From a virus (taxonomy: Duplodnaviria; Caudoviricetes), in the IMG/VR virus record IMGVR_UViG_3300028410_000746: 64,000 nucleotides of DNA, one strand, 5' to 3'. The notes beneath the pieces are model-generated. The model searched no databases. It was not told where the DNA came from and was given only the letters and a program-made list of their open reading frames with translations. Positions 9,467 to 46,457 of this stretch are shown piece after piece. The translations under genes and the position numbers were made by a program. Every line of letters begins with the position of its first letter. The first letter of the stretch is position 1.

Positions 9467-9961
9467 CTACTCATCGTCAGTCTCCGAGGGGGCATGTTCG
9501 GCACACCGTCGACTGAACCAGCTACCCTCATAGACACCCTCGGCGCCCATCTTACCACAGACCTGACAGGTGACGTGACTCACACGCTCCGCAAGGTCCA
9601 CGTAGTGGTCTACCTTGTTAGGCCCATTCATGGTGTAGAACCGCAGCTCGCCCCACTTCTCCTTGACCTGCATGACCACGAAGCCCTCGAAGGGATCGGT
9701 GGGGTACTGCGCAAAGTAGCGCTCAATCCACTCGCAGTCTGCAAGCTCTCCCACGGTGGTGACCCCTTGTTTGACGAAGAGATCGTCGCGGATGTCACAC
9801 ACCTCCGGCCACCTCTTGGCAGCGTGCGAGATCTGATCCAGCAAGGCCTCCACGAGAGGCTCCCAGCCCTCGGGGACGCTGAAGTCAAACGCATCTTTGA
9901 GAAAGGCATGTTTTGCGAACATGCGCTCCCACCACTTCTTCTCTTCTGAACTGTCACTCAT
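9467..9961 (-). CDS. Conserved phage hypothetical protein (QVKEKWGELRFY...CQVCG family)
   Basis: Family motif as recalled; RBS GGAG; true start MSDSSE, the longer track ORF reads through CRISPR array 1. Confidence 0.65.
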   Translation of the reverse strand: MSDSSEEKKWWERMFAKHAFLKDAFDFSVPEGWEPLVEALLDQISHAAKRWPEVCDIRDDLFVKQGVTTVGELADCEWIERYFAQYPTDPFEGFVVMQVKEKWGELRFYTMNGPNKVDHYVDLAERVSHVTCQVCGKMGAEGVYEGSWFSRRCAEHAPSETDDE

Positions 9962-9978
9962 GGTCAAACTCCAGGGTG

Positions 9979-10068
9979 GGGGACATCCCCGCTCGCGCGG
10001 GGAACACCGCAGGTAGTGGGCCTCGTCGCAGATGATGACCGGAACATCCCCGCTCGCGCGGGGAACAC
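9979..10068 (-). CRISPR. Type I-E mini-array 1 (2 repeats, 1 spacer)
   Basis: 29-nt repeats GTGTTCCCCGCGCGAGCGGGGATGT(T/C)CC(G/C) at 10040-10068 and 9979-10007; 32-nt spacer; AT-richer leader to the right. Confidence 0.9.
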
Positions 10069-10345
10069 TCTTCAAATGTTCAGTATACCTAACTCCTTGA
10101 TTCATAAGAGGAATCCTGTTGGCATAGGGTGCGTCGGTTTACTTTACCAAATCGTACCCTGTGGTACAAGCTCCCAAGAGCGACTAAGCGGACCTTACTA
10201 CAAGCTCTCTCCGGCTGTCAAGAGGTTTGCAGCTCTTTCCACATGCGGTACATGTGGGCGCGGATGCGGTCATAAGAGTCCGTGTCGCCTTTTTGAGCGA
10301 TGCCGCGACCCTGGAGCGTGAGGAACACCTCTCCAAAAGCCTCAT

Positions 10346-10498
10346 GGGGACATCCCCGCGTACACGGGGAAGGGGTCCAGGTCAGGCACACGGGCCGTAC
10401 GGGAGTGGGGACATCCCCGCGTACACGGGGAAGGGTGCTACTAGACTCCGGGGTGCATGGCGGTGCGCAGGGGACATCCCCGCGTACACGGGGAAGGG
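10346..10498 (-). CRISPR. Type I-E-like array 2 (3 repeats, 2 spacers)
   Basis: Repeat CCCTTCCCCGTGTACGCGGGGATGTCCCC at 10346, 10407 and 10470; spacers 32 and 34 nt. The G-U in the stem supports minus-strand transcription. Confidence 0.92.
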
Positions 10499-10640
10499 TC
10501 TGTGCCAAGAAGTCACAGGGTAGGGAACACGTAAGTATTCGGTTTTCAAAGACTTTCAGGGTTCAGTGTCAAAGAGCGTCACCCTTGGGCGACCTCTCCG
10601 ACGTCCTTATGGTAACCACACCTAAGAGGGCCTGTCAAGC
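10499..10640 (-). promoter_or_regulatory. CRISPR leader with sigma70 promoter (leader copy 1)
   Basis: TTGACA-N18-TACCAT; highly similar to 39984-40125 and 44025-44165. Confidence 0.8.
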
Positions 10641-11227: not shown

Positions 11228-11602
11228 TCAACCGGCAGACAGCACCAAGCGCCAGATCGTCCACGCACACAGGAGGTGGTACGTGTTGTCGACGATGATC
11301 ACGGACCACGGCCCCATGTTGTCACGGAACCCCGTCTGACCTGCCTTACCCATCCAGGCGGCGGCGAGACGGTAGCGGTCGACCGGGTAGTGCGTGGCCC
11401 AAATGGCAGCGTAGGCCCACCACGGCCAGACATCCCCCATGACCCAGGTGAAGCAGACAAACATCAACGTATAGAGCGTCACATGCACCAGACACGCTGC
11501 CGTGCCCTCCCAGGTACGTGCGCTCTTGTTCTGCGCCATCCAGTCGTTCTGGTAGACGTAATCACCCACGAGGTGAACCAGAATAAGAGTACCCATATCC
11601 AT
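11228..11602 (-). CDS. DUF3307-like membrane protein
   Basis: HLVGDYVYQNDWMAQNK..H..THYPVD..DNTYH. Confidence 0.75.
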   Translation of the reverse strand: MDMGTLILVHLVGDYVYQNDWMAQNKSARTWEGTAACLVHVTLYTLMFVCFTWVMGDVWPWWAYAAIWATHYPVDRYRLAAAWMGKAGQTGFRDNMGPWSVIIVDNTYHLLCAWTIWRLVLSAG

Positions 11603-11880
11603 TACCGAACCTTCGCTTTGGAGGTCTCAAGCACGTACAGCGCCTGAAACAGTGATGTCCCGCCCGCTGTCTCTGGCCCACCCAGAGGACCGGGGTATAC
11701 CACGTCACCACTCTTCGCGTCCAACACAGCGAAGAAATTCTTCCACTGGATGGGAGATACGGGACCCGGCTTCTTGGGAGTTCCCCACTCGCAACGGTAA
11801 TACGGGGTTCCATCCTGGAGGGTGCCTGCACGCGAGGCTGTGAAGCCGTCGTCGCGATGGAAGGTAAAGGGGTAGACCAT
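11602..11880 (-). CDS. Hypothetical protein
   Basis: Tiles operon. Confidence 0.5.
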   Translation of the reverse strand: MVYPFTFHRDDGFTASRAGTLQDGTPYYRCEWGTPKKPGPVSPIQWKNFFAVLDAKSGDVVYPGPLGGPETAGGTSLFQALYVLETSKAKVR

Positions 11881-11982
11881 CTAACTCTCGCAAGGTATGA
11901 GGTATGGGCGCTCGGGAGGCTTACTTCCCGCTCTTGGGCATGGTCACCTTGATCGTCCACACCGGAGGCTTGCCGTTACGAT

Positions 11983-12011
11983 AGGGACATCCCCGCGCGT
12001 GCGGGGAAGGG
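11983..12011 (-). CRISPR. Solitary type I-E repeat
   Basis: CCCTTCCCCGCACGCGCGGGGATGTCCCT; no second repeat one spacer away on either side. Confidence 0.8.
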
Positions 12012-12016
12012 CCGGG

Positions 12017-12055
12017 CGCATCGACAATGCTACCACACCCTGAAAGGGGCGTCAA
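12017..12055 (-). promoter_or_regulatory. Sigma70 promoter directly upstream of the solitary repeat
   Basis: TTGACG-N17(ends TGTGG)-TAGCAT, about 16 nt before the repeat. Confidence 0.7.
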
Positions 12056-12060
12056 GTCCC

Positions 12061-13647
12061 TCACTCCACGGGTCCCAGGATCTCCTGGACGGTACCGAAG
12101 TTGGTGACGAGGAAGCGCACGGGGGCTCCTACCGTGTACCGTTGGAACTCCCCGTAGTCAACGGTGAGGGTCTGCGAGTACGGCGTATCACCCTCCTGGA
12201 ACCCCAGAGTAAGCTCATAACGCGCCGTGCGGCGTTCGCGCTCCAGCGGCCCCAGTGACCCCTTGGGCCAGCGAGCCGGTCTCTTGGTTCCTGCGGAGTT
12301 ATGACGGTCGGAGTCGATCCAGCGTTGCGTGGCGTAGCTGCACCACTGCTGCGGGATGGAGCGCTCGCAGATCTTGTCCACGGTATCGGAGCTGTGAATG
12401 GCCACCTGCTTCGAGCGCGTACACGTGTCAGGCACGCTGTCATAGACCGTACGCGAGCAGGTTGAAGAGACACTACGGGAGCAGTATCTGGGGGAGCAGG
12501 AGCGCGACGCGCTGCCCTTGCTCGTGCGGGACGTAGAGCACGTCTCGCCGCACTGATAGGACTCCGACTTGGAGCATGAATAGCTCTCCTGTCGAGACAC
12601 CTTCTTGGTGCACGAGTAGCTCTCCGTCTCCGTCCTCATGTGCGTACACGACACCTGCTTGGTCCCACACACGTAGTCCTGGTAATGGTGGTGCTTCATG
12701 CGACAGGACTGCACGCGAACTCCCGCGCGCGCGCCTGAGCCGTTGACGGGCTTGACCTCTCTCCGCTCGCTCAGACTCATCTGCCAGTCTTCGTCGACTA
12801 CAGGCGTCCACCGCTGCTCCTGGATCACCCTCTCCCAATGCAGCGACTCCACCTCTCCCGTGACCTCATGGGTCTGGAAGCCCCAAACGGTCGTACCCAG
12901 GACAAGCCCGAGGACACTGATCGCAGCCCCGCCGCCCTTCTGCTTCGGGCTCATGGATGAAAGGCGGGCCAGCTTGGGGACCTTTGGCGGGGAGTCCTCG
13001 GACGGCATACCCGACGTATCCTCGGAGGCCTTCTTGACAGGCTCTTCCTCCTCCAGGAACGCGTTCTCGGAGATCACCGAGCTGGGAAGGTCCTCGTCGC
13101 TCCATTTTGGGCGCGCGACATGACCCTGTGACTGCATCTCTTCTTTGAACGCCGAACGGCCCTTGTTGGCCGCTTCGAGCTGGTCCTCGTGCTTCGCGTC
13201 CGCGTCAAAGGAGAGGCCGTGTGCTGCACGCATACCCGCGAAGGCGCCGAACTGCTCCACGAGGTCCGCTGCGACACCCTGTTCGCCGTCCATGTAGGCC
13301 TGGAATGTACGGTAGTCGAGAGCCTCACGAAGCTGCTCATCCGAAGCACCGCGAGGCGCTGCGCAGTGGTGACACTCCGTCTCATCCCCGTAGTTGTCCC
13401 CCGTGCAGTTCGTACAGAACCAGCTCGCGCCAACGTCTGCGAACCGTGCCGTGTCTTCTTGGGTCCACGCGCGCTCTTCATGACCATGACTGGCCCACGA
13501 CTCGTCATCGCCAGGGAGATACGCCCCATCAAACTCTTCAAAGGTCCGGGCATGCGCGCACTCGGGGCATGTGCGATGGCGAGGACTACACGGGATACCC
13601 ACATGTCCGCAATCCGAACAGTCCCACATCAACCAGTAGTCACTCAT
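12061..13647 (-). CDS. Membrane-anchored protein with N-terminal Zn ribbons and a Cys-rich C-terminal domain
   Basis: WDCSDC/CPEC/WFCTNC..CHHC; one TM segment; Cys-rich tract. Confidence 0.7.
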   Translation of the reverse strand: MSDYWLMWDCSDCGHVGIPCSPRHRTCPECAHARTFEEFDGAYLPGDDESWASHGHEERAWTQEDTARFADVGASWFCTNCTGDNYGDETECHHCAAPRGASDEQLREALDYRTFQAYMDGEQGVAADLVEQFGAFAGMRAAHGLSFDADAKHEDQLEAANKGRSAFKEEMQSQGHVARPKWSDEDLPSSVISENAFLEEEEPVKKASEDTSGMPSEDSPPKVPKLARLSSMSPKQKGGGAAISVLGLVLGTTVWGFQTHEVTGEVESLHWERVIQEQRWTPVVDEDWQMSLSERREVKPVNGSGARAGVRVQSCRMKHHHYQDYVCGTKQVSCTHMRTETESYSCTKKVSRQESYSCSKSESYQCGETCSTSRTSKGSASRSCSPRYCSRSVSSTCSRTVYDSVPDTCTRSKQVAIHSSDTVDKICERSIPQQWCSYATQRWIDSDRHNSAGTKRPARWPKGSLGPLERERRTARYELTLGFQEGDTPYSQTLTVDYGEFQRYTVGAPVRFLVTNFGTVQEILGPVE

Positions 13648-13674
13648 AGCTCTACTCCTATTCTTCAAGGGGCC

Positions 13675-19814: not shown

Positions 19815-19929
19815 GGAATGGAGAGGTAGGCACGTACTTGGTTTTTGCCGGACCAAAGCAGGCTCTTGGTTAGAAGACCCTGTACCCCCTCTCCATGCCG
19901 GGTACTATGCCACACCCCATGCGTAGGGG

Positions 19930-20880
19930 TCAAGACAAATAGGCACCCTCGGGACCACAAAGATCCAGGCGATCGCCAATGAGACCTCGCACGCGCGCAC
20001 GCTCGTCCGCATCCATGCGCGCCCACTGAGCCGCCACCTGCTCCCGGACCTCGGCAGGAACCTTATCCTTTGGAGAGGGTACCCACTCACGCAGGTACTG
20101 AATCATCTGGGCTGCGCGGTCCATGTCTGACGGCCGCCAGACGCACACACGCTCTCGCTCCTCCGTCACCGCCTTGACGGACTTGAAGGCCTCCTCAGAG
20201 TCGACGTCATTGTCCAGGTAGTCCTCCCAGCAGGCGCTGTTGAGGGCATTGAACGCAAGGTCCTGCTCTCCCTTCAGGTCGAGCACGAAGGCTTCGTACT
20301 CCTTGTGGTAGATCGCGTCTTCTTCTTTCCAGGTGAAGCTGCCGTCTTCCTGCCAGGACCCCTCAGTCGGGTCCAACCCTGACTCGAAGATCACGGGCCA
20401 CGGAACGTTGAGAGGCTCGCTGACGTCATACATCCGCACCTGATAGGGACACCCCCAGTAGCAGCCCTCCATGACCAGGAACTGCTTGCACGGCGACAGT
20501 TGCATCAACGCAATGCAGAACCCATGTCCGTCATTGGCCGCCTCGGAGAGGAAGTCGACCTGTTCGCCGTCGCTCAGGCGCACCACCGTATACCCCTGGT
20601 AGTCAAACCCACAGATCAAGTAGTCCTCGCCGTCCTCCGCGCCCACGAGGAACTCGTAAGGAAAAGACCCGAAGTTGCGGTCGACCCGCGCCACCTCGTC
20701 ATCTCCCCGATACACAATCCCACGAGAGTAGCCCCACGCCTCCTTTTCCGGATTATTCAGGTTGCCGATCACGAGTTGGTAGGTCTCGCAAGGGCTCATC
20801 CGGGGTGTGTCCCGCACCGTGAAATCCCAGTCGGACATGTCAGGGCGGTCGTAGGCTTCGGTCGTCGTCTCAGCACTCAT
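19930..20880 (-). CDS. Hypothetical acidic protein
   Basis: RBS GGAG; start MSAETT. Confidence 0.6.
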   Translation of the reverse strand: MSAETTTEAYDRPDMSDWDFTVRDTPRMSPCETYQLVIGNLNNPEKEAWGYSRGIVYRGDDEVARVDRNFGSFPYEFLVGAEDGEDYLICGFDYQGYTVVRLSDGEQVDFLSEAANDGHGFCIALMQLSPCKQFLVMEGCYWGCPYQVRMYDVSEPLNVPWPVIFESGLDPTEGSWQEDGSFTWKEEDAIYHKEYEAFVLDLKGEQDLAFNALNSACWEDYLDNDVDSEEAFKSVKAVTEERERVCVWRPSDMDRAAQMIQYLREWVPSPKDKVPAEVREQVAAQWARMDADERARVRGLIGDRLDLCGPEGAYLS

Positions 20881-22899: not shown

Positions 22900-23717
22900 T
22901 GGTCTTGCTGGACCTCTCCAGGAGGTGCGAGGAACTCCCTGAGCATCCCGTCTCCCAACAACAATGGCAAGAGGGTTCCTCATCCTGGAGGGTGGTGTTT
23001 GAAGCTGGGTCAAGTTTGCGTAGCCAGGGTGCAAGCCACGTCTCTCAACGGGGCAAGTTTTGGATAACCCGAGCTACATCAGACCCAGCTTCAAGCTGGT
23101 CCGGCCGGAGCCGGTAGAAAGCTTCCCGGTCAAGGTAGCGTAGGAGGGTATCCCCCAGCCCAACCCAGACCCACTCTCGCAGGTAGGGCTCGACATGGGG
23201 GTTTCCAGTAACCCTGCCTACATCAGACCGGAAAGAGGTGTCGCAGATGCGGTGTGGTCGCGAAGGGAACGGAAGGGAAGGGACCATCCCCATGTGCGTG
23301 GGGAATCGATCGAGTTACCATCTCTCCCACCCGCTAGAAGCCCCCTCGGTGAAGCCCGAGACCTCCCTCCGGGTATGAACCGGAGGGTGTGCTGATTACA
23401 CCAGAGGCACCGTGTCACCTCAAGGGTAACTTCGGCAGGACCTCTCCACGCACTTTGCAGTGCCTACCTTTGCTGATATCCGCGACAGGTAGTAATCCAG
23501 TGCTCCGTTCTGGACTTGCACCAGACCTTCCCGCAGACCTCTCCACCAAAGAAGAGAGATGAGGGGCGTGCCTCTAAAGGTACTCGGCGCTTCATCGGAG
23601 GATCTAAAGACCCGTCCATTTCCGTCGCCTCGTACGCCAACACTTTCGGAACAGAACGTTCGATCAAGAGAGCGACGAGGAAGATTTTTGCGGTAATCCT
23701 CGTCAGCAGATCGAACG
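22900..23717 (-). ncRNA. Highly structured non-coding region in the tRNA operon (several scaffold copies)
   Basis: No credible ORF; many nested stems and repeated motifs. Confidence 0.55.
23280..23308 (-). repeat. Degenerate solitary type I-E-like repeat
   Basis: CGATTCCCCACGCACATGGGGATGGTCCC. Confidence 0.45.
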
Positions 23718-25542: not shown

Positions 25543-25621
25543 AGGAACTCCTGTACTAGTTCACGTGAGCGACGACTCTACCACACACAGAGTGAACGGG
25601 TCAAGCATATCAGACCTCAGA

Positions 25622-39466: not shown

Positions 39467-39983
39467 GGGGACATCCCCGCGTGTGCGGGGAGGGGTTGAC
39501 CGAGCACTGCTTCAGGTTGTCGATGTGGGGGACATCCCCGCGTACACGGGGAGGGGAAAACTTCTCCTGGGGGGTCTCTGCGGGCGCGGGGGACATCCCC
39601 GCGTGTGCGGGGAGGGGTTCCATCACTGCGCAGGAGCCGATGGCGGCGACGGGACATCCCCGCGTGTGCGGGGAGGGGTGCGCGACACAAGTCGTACATA
39701 AGCTCATTGCGGGGACATCCCCGCGTGTGCGGGGAGGGGTGACTCCGAGACCTCCGAGAGTGAGTCGCCGAGGGGACATCCCCGCGTGTGCGGGGAGGGG
39801 AAGCACGTCCGCGTCGGGCTGGTCAAAGCCAAGGGGACATCCCCGCGTGTGCGGGGAGGGGCCCGTCGTCTGGACCGCCGCTGACCTTATGGAGGGGACA
39901 TCCCCGCGTGTGCGGGGAGGGGAACTCATGGCGAGATGGTCTCCCAGGTCATACGGGGACATCCCCGCGTGTGCGGGGAGGGG
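39467..39983 (-). CRISPR. Type I-E-like array 3 (9 repeats, 8 spacers)
   Basis: 29-nt repeat CCCCTCCCCGCACACGCGGGGATGTCCCC every 61 nt (39467, 39528, 39589, 39650, 39711, 39772, 39833, 39894, 39955); all spacers 32 nt. Confidence 0.97.
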
Positions 39984-41477: not shown

Positions 41478-41567
41478 ACACATCTCCAAAAAAGCGGAGG
41501 GGGAGTCGAACCCCCGGCGCCGCACTCCGCTAAGACACTACTCAAAGAGGGATGGACGCTGCCAGGA

Positions 41568-43995: not shown

Positions 43996-44024
43996 CGGAA
44001 CATCCCCGCGTGTGCGGGGAAGGG
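43996..44024 (-). CRISPR. Solitary type I-E repeat with a full leader
   Basis: CCCTTCCCCGCACACGCGGGGATGTTCCG; no neighbouring repeat. Confidence 0.85.
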
Positions 44025-44165
44025 TCTGTGCCAAGAAGTCACATGAGCGGAATCACGTAAGTACTCAGTTTTCAAAGACTTCTCAGGTTCAGCGCCGTTC
44101 GGTGTCACCCTTGGGCGACCCTCTTGACGTCCGTATGGTAACCCTGAGGAGGGAAACCTGTCAAC
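44025..44165 (-). promoter_or_regulatory. CRISPR leader with promoter (leader copy 3)
   Basis: TTGACA-N18-TACCAT; homologous to the other two leaders. Confidence 0.8.
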
Positions 44166-44279
44166 ATGAGCAAGCTTCGCTTCCGCCAATTGCTTCAAAT
44201 GCGCATCCCTCAACCCGAACCTCCTGTCACAGTGTGAGTCCGAAGAGAGAGGATACCTCGAAGTCACACACCTGTCAAG

Positions 44280-46025: not shown

Positions 46026-46457
46026 TTACCAGCGCACGTCCTGGATGATGTACGTGATCCACACCTGACGCTCTCCGTTACGAGCATCAAGACCCACAAC
46101 GGTATGACACCACGGGTTCTCCTTCGGATCTGCCGAGATACCCTCCCAGGTGACCACGGGGTTGGCGAAGCTGCCCCCAAACCCAGGCGCTGCTATGATT
46201 TGGTTGAGCATTGTACGGACCTCAACCGGATCGTGAGCGGCAACCACACCCTCCCACACGTCCCCAGACAACTGACACTCTGCGAATCGACGCAGGGGGT
46301 CACTGTGCGGAGTGTACTCGGCCTCCCAAACCTCCGCCGTAATGGCCTCGAAAGCGTCATGCGAGAAGATGTAGAGGTGGAAGATCTCCACACCATCCTC
46401 ATGATACAGGTACTCGACCGGCTCAACTGAATTCGTTGGTGCAGAACTCATATCCAT
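46026..46457 (-). CDS. Hypothetical protein
   Basis: Tiles operon. Confidence 0.45.
   Translation of the reverse strand: MDMSSAPTNSVEPVEYLYHEDGVEIFHLYIFSHDAFEAITAEVWEAEYTPHSDPLRRFAECQLSGDVWEGVVAAHDPVEVRTMLNQIIAAPGFGGSFANPVVTWEGISADPKENPWCHTVVGLDARNGERQVWITYIIQDVRW

Follow-up and report, generated by a model that had tools for sequence, protein, structure and literature searches.

A promoter-driven, intact and solitary type I-E CRISPR repeat at the predicted head of an operon mRNA in a phage with CRISPR arrays of its own

Solitary CRISPR repeats carried by viruses are usually read as decoys against the CRISPR systems of their hosts. As the work of Faure et al. 2019 is cited by Camara-Wilpert et al. 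2023 (PMC10651486), viral solitary repeat units have a predicted promoter immediately upstream and are described without an association with cas genes. For one RNA anti-CRISPR (Racr), RacrIF1, the active species is the 70-76 nt that lie upstream of the Cas6f cut and carry a Cas7f filament, while the downstream piece that bears the handle is not inhibitory (PMC10651486). The same study validated two type I-E Racrs, RacrIE1 and RacrIE2, experimentally, noted that Racr candidates often adjoin acr genes and found that 5'-OH ends cut by Cas6 are more stable than primary 5' ends (PMC10651486). Regulatory mini-arrays and crRNA-like RNAs are built from two repeat-like sequences around a spacer that is in part complementary to the promoter of cas or cargo genes, and their place is inside cas loci (Shmakov et al. 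2023, PMC10120712). Those parts of Al-Shayeb et al. 2020 (PMC7162821) on which we draw describe the arrays and effectors of huge phages, not solitary repeats that head operons.

We report here the analysis of a lone repeat in a phage that carries several arrays of the same repeat family, on a stretch of 64,000 nucleotides that we call the window. Judged from its sequence, the element fits the description of a promoter-driven, intact, solitary type I-E repeat that would head an operon mRNA, and it falls within the known class of viral solitary repeat units. A preliminary description of the locus had offered two readings for it, a solitary repeat unit of the Racr kind and a crRNA-like regulator; in the present work we weigh both against further explanations and arrive, tentatively, at a third, in which the repeat serves as a processing site for the phage's own messages.

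The GC content of the 64-kb window is about 0.60, and its minus strand carries nearly all of the long open reading frames and all 15 tRNA genes, two of which have CUA anticodons. Among the genes that can be assigned are those for a Lon protease with an intein, an Ig-repeat protein of 1271 aa, an AlkB-type oxygenase and a DUF3307 membrane protein. A blastn search of INPHARED returned no match, and tblastn with the type I-E Cas proteins of Streptomyces found no type I-E cas homologue in the 64 kb. One repeat family accounts for 16 repeat copies in five loci, every copy being oriented along the minus strand:

44024-43997, minus strand: single-repeat unit of the window's CRISPR repeat family
43997-44186, minus strand: that same unit with its leader of about 140 nt, common to ArrA and ArrB by leader alignment, plus one repeat
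39983-39468, minus strand: ArrA, a CRISPR array of nine repeats
12011-11984, minus strand: the solitary repeat reported here, of the same family
10638-10347, minus strand: ArrB, a CRISPR array with a promoter (10638-10609), a leader of about 110 nt and three repeats (10498-10347)
10068-9980, minus strand: ArrC, a CRISPR array of two repeats

With a leader and one repeat, the unit at 44024-43997 is an array that is empty or has collapsed, and a gene on the same strand lies about 67 nt downstream of its single repeat. The eighth repeat of ArrA (39529-39556, minus strand) has the loop variant of ArrB, with GTGTAC in place of GCACAC, which points to exchange between arrays that are 29 kb apart. 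The last repeat of ArrC (region 9947-10007, minus strand) stops 18 nt short of an ATG with GGAG as its ribosome-binding site, and the last repeat of ArrB (region 10314-10374, minus strand) ends 1 nt before the ATG of a 53-aa open reading frame; no terminators were seen downstream of either array. Most of the real spacers in the arrays (9980-10498 and 39468-39983, minus strand) are coding-like in one of the six frames and follow the codon usage of the phage itself, so that their targets are probably genes of phages of similar composition. A candidate for a third, diverged solitary repeat lies at 23281-23308 (minus strand) in a non-coding stretch of the tRNA cluster. It matches at 21 of 28 positions, one G:C pair of the stem having become A:U through changes in both strands of the stem; the ATGG-TCC handle is kept, and the fold is weak (-10.2 kcal/mol, z -1.4). 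At 41498-41515 (minus strand) there is a terminator-like match, GGGGGTTCGACTCCCCC, that resembles a tRNA T-arm; ARAGORN calls no tRNA there, and by its sequence the element may be a tRNA fragment or a tRNA-like element.

The solitary repeat itself sits in a gap of 180 nt between two genes, for 535-aa and 92-aa proteins, and the features of the locus, in the direction of the minus strand, are as follows:

12061-13668, minus strand: gene for a Cys-rich, zinc-ribbon-like protein of 535 aa, upstream of the repeat (homologue alignment)
12027-12055, minus strand: sigma-70-like promoter TTGACG-N17-TAGCAT, with GTGTGG directly before the -10 box (consensus match)
11984-12011, minus strand: solitary type I-E CRISPR repeat of 28 nt, with its hairpin at 12007-11990 (sequence and fold)
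11921-11983, minus strand: spacer-like and coding-like tract of 20 codons plus TAA (codon statistics)
11913-11930, minus strand: small hairpin with a 5-bp stem and an 8-nt loop, neither significant nor a terminator
11602-11880, minus strand: gene for a 92-aa ORFan, which opens the operon 103 nt past the repeat
11602-11228, minus strand: DUF3307 membrane protein, the operon gene that follows the ORFan
about 11309-10635, minus strand: AlkB-type 2OG-Fe(II) oxygenase, the last gene of the operon

From its nearest relatives in the window the repeat at 12011-11984 differs by one base, which lies in the loop. All positions that are invariant in the window's 15 other repeats are kept, and the fold, a stem of 7 bp with a loop of 4 nt at -14.3 kcal/mol, is that of the other copies. 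Sequence and fold agree with what marks a type I-E repeat, namely a length of about 28-29 nt, a CCCCGC/GCGGGG stem, a 4-nt loop and a 3' handle of 7-8 nt, in arrays beside cas8e-cse2-cas7e-cas5e-cas6e. A core of 24 nt is identical to the repeat of an array in Streptomyces toxytricini, which lies directly after a complete cse1-cse2-cas7e-cas5e-cas6e-cas1-cas2 operon and in the same orientation; the identical core and the shared orientation fix both the subtype, type I-E, and the transcribed strand. The preliminary description of one intact I-E repeat is thereby upheld, the invariant positions, the fold and the Streptomyces core all agreeing with it. It had also stated that no second repeat is present, and so we find: within 100 or 200 nt on either side the best local alignment scores below the mean of shuffled flanks, and the nearest true repeat is 1.5 kb distant. 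A repeat-like stretch inside the 92-aa open reading frame (11803-11776, 20 of 28 positions) was discarded as chance-level, being without a hairpin and of a quality expected 0.63 times per window. Homology of the 49 nt upstream of the repeat to an array leader was likewise rejected, on alignment with the leaders of ArrA, ArrB and the 44-kb unit.

Contigs from three further samples carry the locus with 100% identity, which rules out an assembly artefact; with all other copies 100% identical, there is no variation from which selection could be read. Among the contigs with this locus, a JGI contig of 997 nt (L129) has an AT-rich stretch at 1-161 that is unrelated to the window, the remainder being 100% identical, and this contig is probably a chimeric assembly. 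Rfam gave nothing relevant, and a scan of viral contigs for the solitary repeat gave no match. In metagenome and genome scans all matches to the repeat were generic type I-E arrays, with no relative of the phage among them, and because they are spread over many phyla they assign no host.

The sigma70 promoter TTGACG-N17-TAGCAT that was initially recognised here holds good as a consensus match. Lying at 12055-12027, it has a TG-extended -10 box and begins 5 nt past the stop codon of the upstream gene, and within 5 kb the only other match of its kind is the promoter of the ArrB leader. Across the window, the minus strand has 14 matches of that quality and the plus strand a single one, and four of the minus-strand matches have in common the GTGTGG directly before the -10 box. 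The combined motif TTGAC-N(9-15)-GTGTGG occurs five times in the window (10616-10638, 12033-12055, 19910-19933, 25581-25604 and 1285-1308), always on the minus strand, against 0.28 occurrences expected, and none of 100 shuffles reaches five. Four of these sites stand ahead of ArrB, the solitary repeat, an amber-suppressor tRNA and a 409-aa gene, respectively, and the fifth lies inside an open reading frame at the left end of the window. This count strengthens the assignment considerably, and we accept the putative promoter at 12055-12027 as a member of a real, recurrent and strand-specific promoter class of this phage. The position of the transcription start, in contrast, has to be moved from the 16 nt or so before the repeat that had been suggested: it is the -10 box that ends 15 nt upstream of the repeat, and this spacing makes A12021 or G12019, some 8-10 nt before the repeat, the likely start.

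The stretch that follows the repeat had been said to read as coding, and codon statistics agree. Under a codon model trained on the genes of the window, the tract 11983-11921 has a log-likelihood of 0.457 per codon. None of the off-frame windows scores as high; in antisense 1.9% of windows do, and of the shuffles 0.6%. Both halves of the tract score about 0.56, and for the coding signal in the 60 nt after the repeat P is about 0.01. Taken alone, the first 33 nt of the tract prove little, as the real spacers of the arrays, too, are often coding-like in one of the six frames. The further proposal, that the tract is a captured piece of a gene, fares less evenly, since the codon statistics fit it but no source gene was found in the loci, contigs and window searched. 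There is no counterpart of the tract in the loci of the relatives of the 535-aa protein, and a codon-degenerate scan of viral contigs came back empty. Two particular origins were considered and dismissed. The tract is not the lost C-terminus of the 535-aa protein, whose homologues end at the same place, and its resemblance to the C-terminus of the open reading frame at 46026-46457, as a paralogue, is at the level of chance (22 of 26 nt, E 4.5; blastp E 0.028 for a pair chosen post hoc).

A small hairpin had also been pointed out beyond the repeat. It is present, at 11930-11913, but is no better than chance, as 17 of 200 shuffles fold equally well, and it is missing from the minimum-energy fold of the predicted RNA of 144 nt, the fold of which has a z-score of -0.57. 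No terminator-like site was found between the solitary repeat and the next genes and arrays; in consequence any RNA made here probably forms the start of an mRNA instead of a separate small RNA. The arrangement of the genes downstream is of a kind with this. The 92-aa open reading frame is coding-like (codon score 0.218) and its end overlaps the start of the DUF3307 gene by one base; the stop codon of alkB falls within the -35 box of the promoter of the ArrB leader, such that the operon runs straight into the ArrB leader. On its sequence context, then, the repeat would form the 5' end of an operon transcript rather than a free-standing small-RNA gene. For the 92-aa protein, only identical copies were found among 5.8 billion proteins, and a structure search in the Atlas was uninformative.

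On the other side of the repeat, the C-terminus of the 535-aa protein aligns with those of its homologues, so the gene has not been truncated by the repeat. The protein has N-terminal, zinc-ribbon-like CxxC pairs and a region rich in Cys, Ser and Thr with invariant cysteines. Its homologues (L001, L002, L003 and L005-L008) share 45-58% identity with it and come from huge-phage contigs of 351-456 kb and from bacterial-looking contigs; by the names given at the source, one homologue is from Myxococcota and one that is more distant is from Deltaproteobacteria. In the homologue loci at 45-58% identity there is neither a CRISPR repeat beside the gene nor any sharing of downstream genes, which makes the element specific to this phage lineage. 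Scans of viral contigs and of metagenome contigs with the 535-aa protein found nothing, and no relative near enough to gauge conservation came to light.

What, then, might such a repeat be for? Were the tract behind it a spacer, the element would yield a one-guide or regulatory crRNA-like RNA, directing Cascade to a full or partial target, for example a cas promoter or a rival phage. The first 33 nt beyond the repeat do stand in the position of a spacer and have the gene-derived look of the real spacers, and regulatory crRNA-like elements and viral mini-arrays are both known. No second repeat-like element and no Cas6e-type hairpin closes the unit, however, so that the pair of repeats which marks a regulatory mini-array is here a single one. 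Seed-plus-PAM and full-length searches of the 64-kb window with the pseudo-spacer, the seed search ignoring its every sixth position, stayed at the level of chance: there were 3 seed hits, none with an extended match, against 2.7 expected, and the best alignment covered 22 of 26 nt with an E of 4.5. In the fetched loci neither the pseudo-spacer nor eleven real spacers had a meaningful match, and the codon-degenerate scan of viral contigs, as noted above, was empty. With neither a second repeat-like element nor an above-chance target in the window, the crRNA-like regulator of the preliminary description gains no support, and we regard a guide as very improbable. Less probable still is that the 47-aa open reading frame at 12064-11921 is a real protein gene, translationally coupled to the upstream gene by a GTGA overlap, with the repeat as mere coding sequence. 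Its GTG start does overlap the upstream TGA stop and its last 20 codons have strong coding statistics, but the first 27, which hold the promoter and the repeat, are not coding-like (about -0.1 per codon); no convincing ribosome-binding site is seen, and there is no homologue in the loci of the relatives or in the window beyond translated CRISPR repeats. The identity of the repeat, moreover, far exceeds what a peptide would require.

As an RNA anti-CRISPR the repeat would be a highly expressed decoy that soaks up Cas6e, and perhaps Cas7, of the type I-E system of the host or of a rival phage. In the manner of SRUFinder, the locus has a full-length repeat match and no complete or partial repeat in flanks of 100 bp, and because the 47-aa frame that overlaps it is unlikely to be a gene we count it as intergenic; it has besides a promoter directly upstream, a small ORFan immediately downstream, where Racr candidates often have acr genes beside them, a core identical to bacterial type I-E repeats, and the precedent of two type I-E Racrs validated by experiment. 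In its formal aspect, therefore, the first assignment to the solitary repeat units stands. The mechanism of a Racr is a poor fit, since the piece upstream of the cut would be about 30 nt and essentially the hairpin alone: about 14 unpaired nt precede the stem, against a product of 70-76 nt upstream of the cut in RacrIF1, the one Racr for which such a stretch has been demonstrated. Nor is there a terminator that would make a discrete small RNA, the repeat matches are spread over many phyla, and the neighbours, alkB and DUF3307, are not anti-defence genes. We hold this decoy to be unlikely, and give slightly more credence, though still little, to an inert relic: a repeat left by the turnover or recombination of arrays, with no selected role, behind a promoter that serves the downstream genes only. 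Five CRISPR loci in one window with signs of exchange between arrays (the ArrB loop in the eighth repeat of ArrA) speak for it, the element is absent next to the homologues of the flanking 535-aa gene, and neither a target nor a second repeat was found. Against it, the repeat is perfect at every invariant position, with its sole difference in the loop; it lacks the shared leader and hence is not a simple collapsed copy of an array cassette; and no more than 15 nt separate it from a promoter that belongs to a specific class. Even a relic, if transcribed, would still be a substrate of Cas6e.

The explanation that we prefer, although we put it at somewhat below an even chance, is that a stray, intact type I-E repeat behind a genuine promoter forms part of the operon transcript and is cleaved there by Cas6e, mRNA maturation being the outcome. 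In this model the element would be a stray member of the type I-E repeat family that the phage itself carries, intact throughout. Transcription of the operon of the 92-aa ORFan, DUF3307 and alkB would start some 8-10 nt upstream of the repeat, and the RNA would run through all three genes and into the ArrB leader, there being no terminator on the way. Cas6e, the host's or one that the phage may itself encode, would then bind the repeat hairpin and cut at its 3' base; by analogy with the Cas6e of E. coli the cut is predicted between 11991 and 11990, giving the handle AUGUCCC plus U. One product would be a hairpin of about 30 nt with one Cas6e bound to it, the other an operon mRNA that starts with a crRNA-type handle with a 5'-OH. 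The first repeat of ArrB, about 1.5 kb downstream, would provide a second cut, so that the operon RNA would be bracketed by two Cas6e sites. From these products and the second site in ArrB we infer that the main effect would be Cas6e-dependent maturation of the mRNA, with a minor titration of Cas6e and no guided targeting.

Several observations lend support to this processing model: the repeat is intact and folds as the others do, its promoter is of the class found before ArrB, the suppressor tRNA and the 409-aa gene as well, no terminator intervenes, the 92-aa frame is coding-like and adjoins the DUF3307 gene, and other CRISPR units of the window, ArrC and that at 44024-43997, likewise lie directly ahead of genes on the same strand. 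The greater stability of 5'-OH ends cut by Cas6 in the Racr study (PMC10651486) also speaks for it. The lack of a second repeat, of a shared leader and of a target, by the same token, costs the array and guide readings ground. While the anatomy of the locus can be read off directly, its transcription, its cleavage by Cas6e and any effect on the mRNA are what the model would add, and we consider transcription with the operon followed by cleavage, the first repeat of ArrB being the next cut, the most economical mechanism that our analysis suggests. A transcribed relic would be cut likewise, and an adaptive role is accordingly unproven; the model also leaves the coding-like tract after the repeat unexplained. 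A bolder version, to which we attach only a low probability, would make solitary repeats and the end repeats of arrays a form of punctuation for accessory operons. A first cut by Cas6e at the repeat behind the promoter and a second at the next array would release an mRNA with a crRNA-type 5'-OH handle at one end and a Cas6e-capped hairpin at the 3' end, and the stability or translation of genes such as alkB would thereby be coupled to the expression of the phage's CRISPR-Cas.

Such a unit, at the 5' end of an operon in a phage that has CRISPR arrays of its own, suggests a use different from that of a decoy, namely the Cas6e-dependent processing of the phage's own messages or a titration by the phage of its own CRISPR machinery. 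If this is true, CRISPR repeats in huge phages would also be signals for RNA processing; if it is not, the element would be one more by-product of a rapid turnover of arrays. In either event the analysis speaks clearly against a guide with a target in the window, and it defines a class of promoters in this phage.

Set beside the systems with which we began, the locus shares something with each. With the huge phages of Al-Shayeb et al. 2020 (PMC7162821), so far as that account is drawn on here, it has in common the huge-phage setting and compact arrays. Like the regulatory mini-arrays (PMC10120712), it derives from a repeat, stands apart from a normal array and could load Cas proteins, but it has one repeat, and no target in the window. 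It resembles the minimal or empty array at 44024-43997 in being one repeat of the same family, on the same strand, followed by a gene; that unit has the leader cassette of about 140 nt of ArrA and ArrB, whereas the solitary repeat has an unrelated upstream region of 49 nt that holds a promoter only. As in RacrIF1 and in RacrIE1 and RacrIE2, with the latter two of which it shares the type I-E subtype, a promoter would drive a mimic of the repeat hairpin that Cas6 recognises; unlike RacrIF1, it has only some 8-10 nt before the repeat in place of the RNA of 70-76 nt with its Cas7 filament, no discrete 3' end of a small RNA and no known acr gene beside it. The unit at 44024-43997, with about 100 nt of transcribed leader before its single repeat, is closer to the layout of RacrIF1 than is the element reported here. 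In form it resembles the viral solitary repeat units as outlined from Faure et al. 2019, in that one full, intergenic repeat in a phage has a promoter upstream and flanks free of repeats; it departs from that outline in its carrier, a phage with many arrays of the same repeat family.
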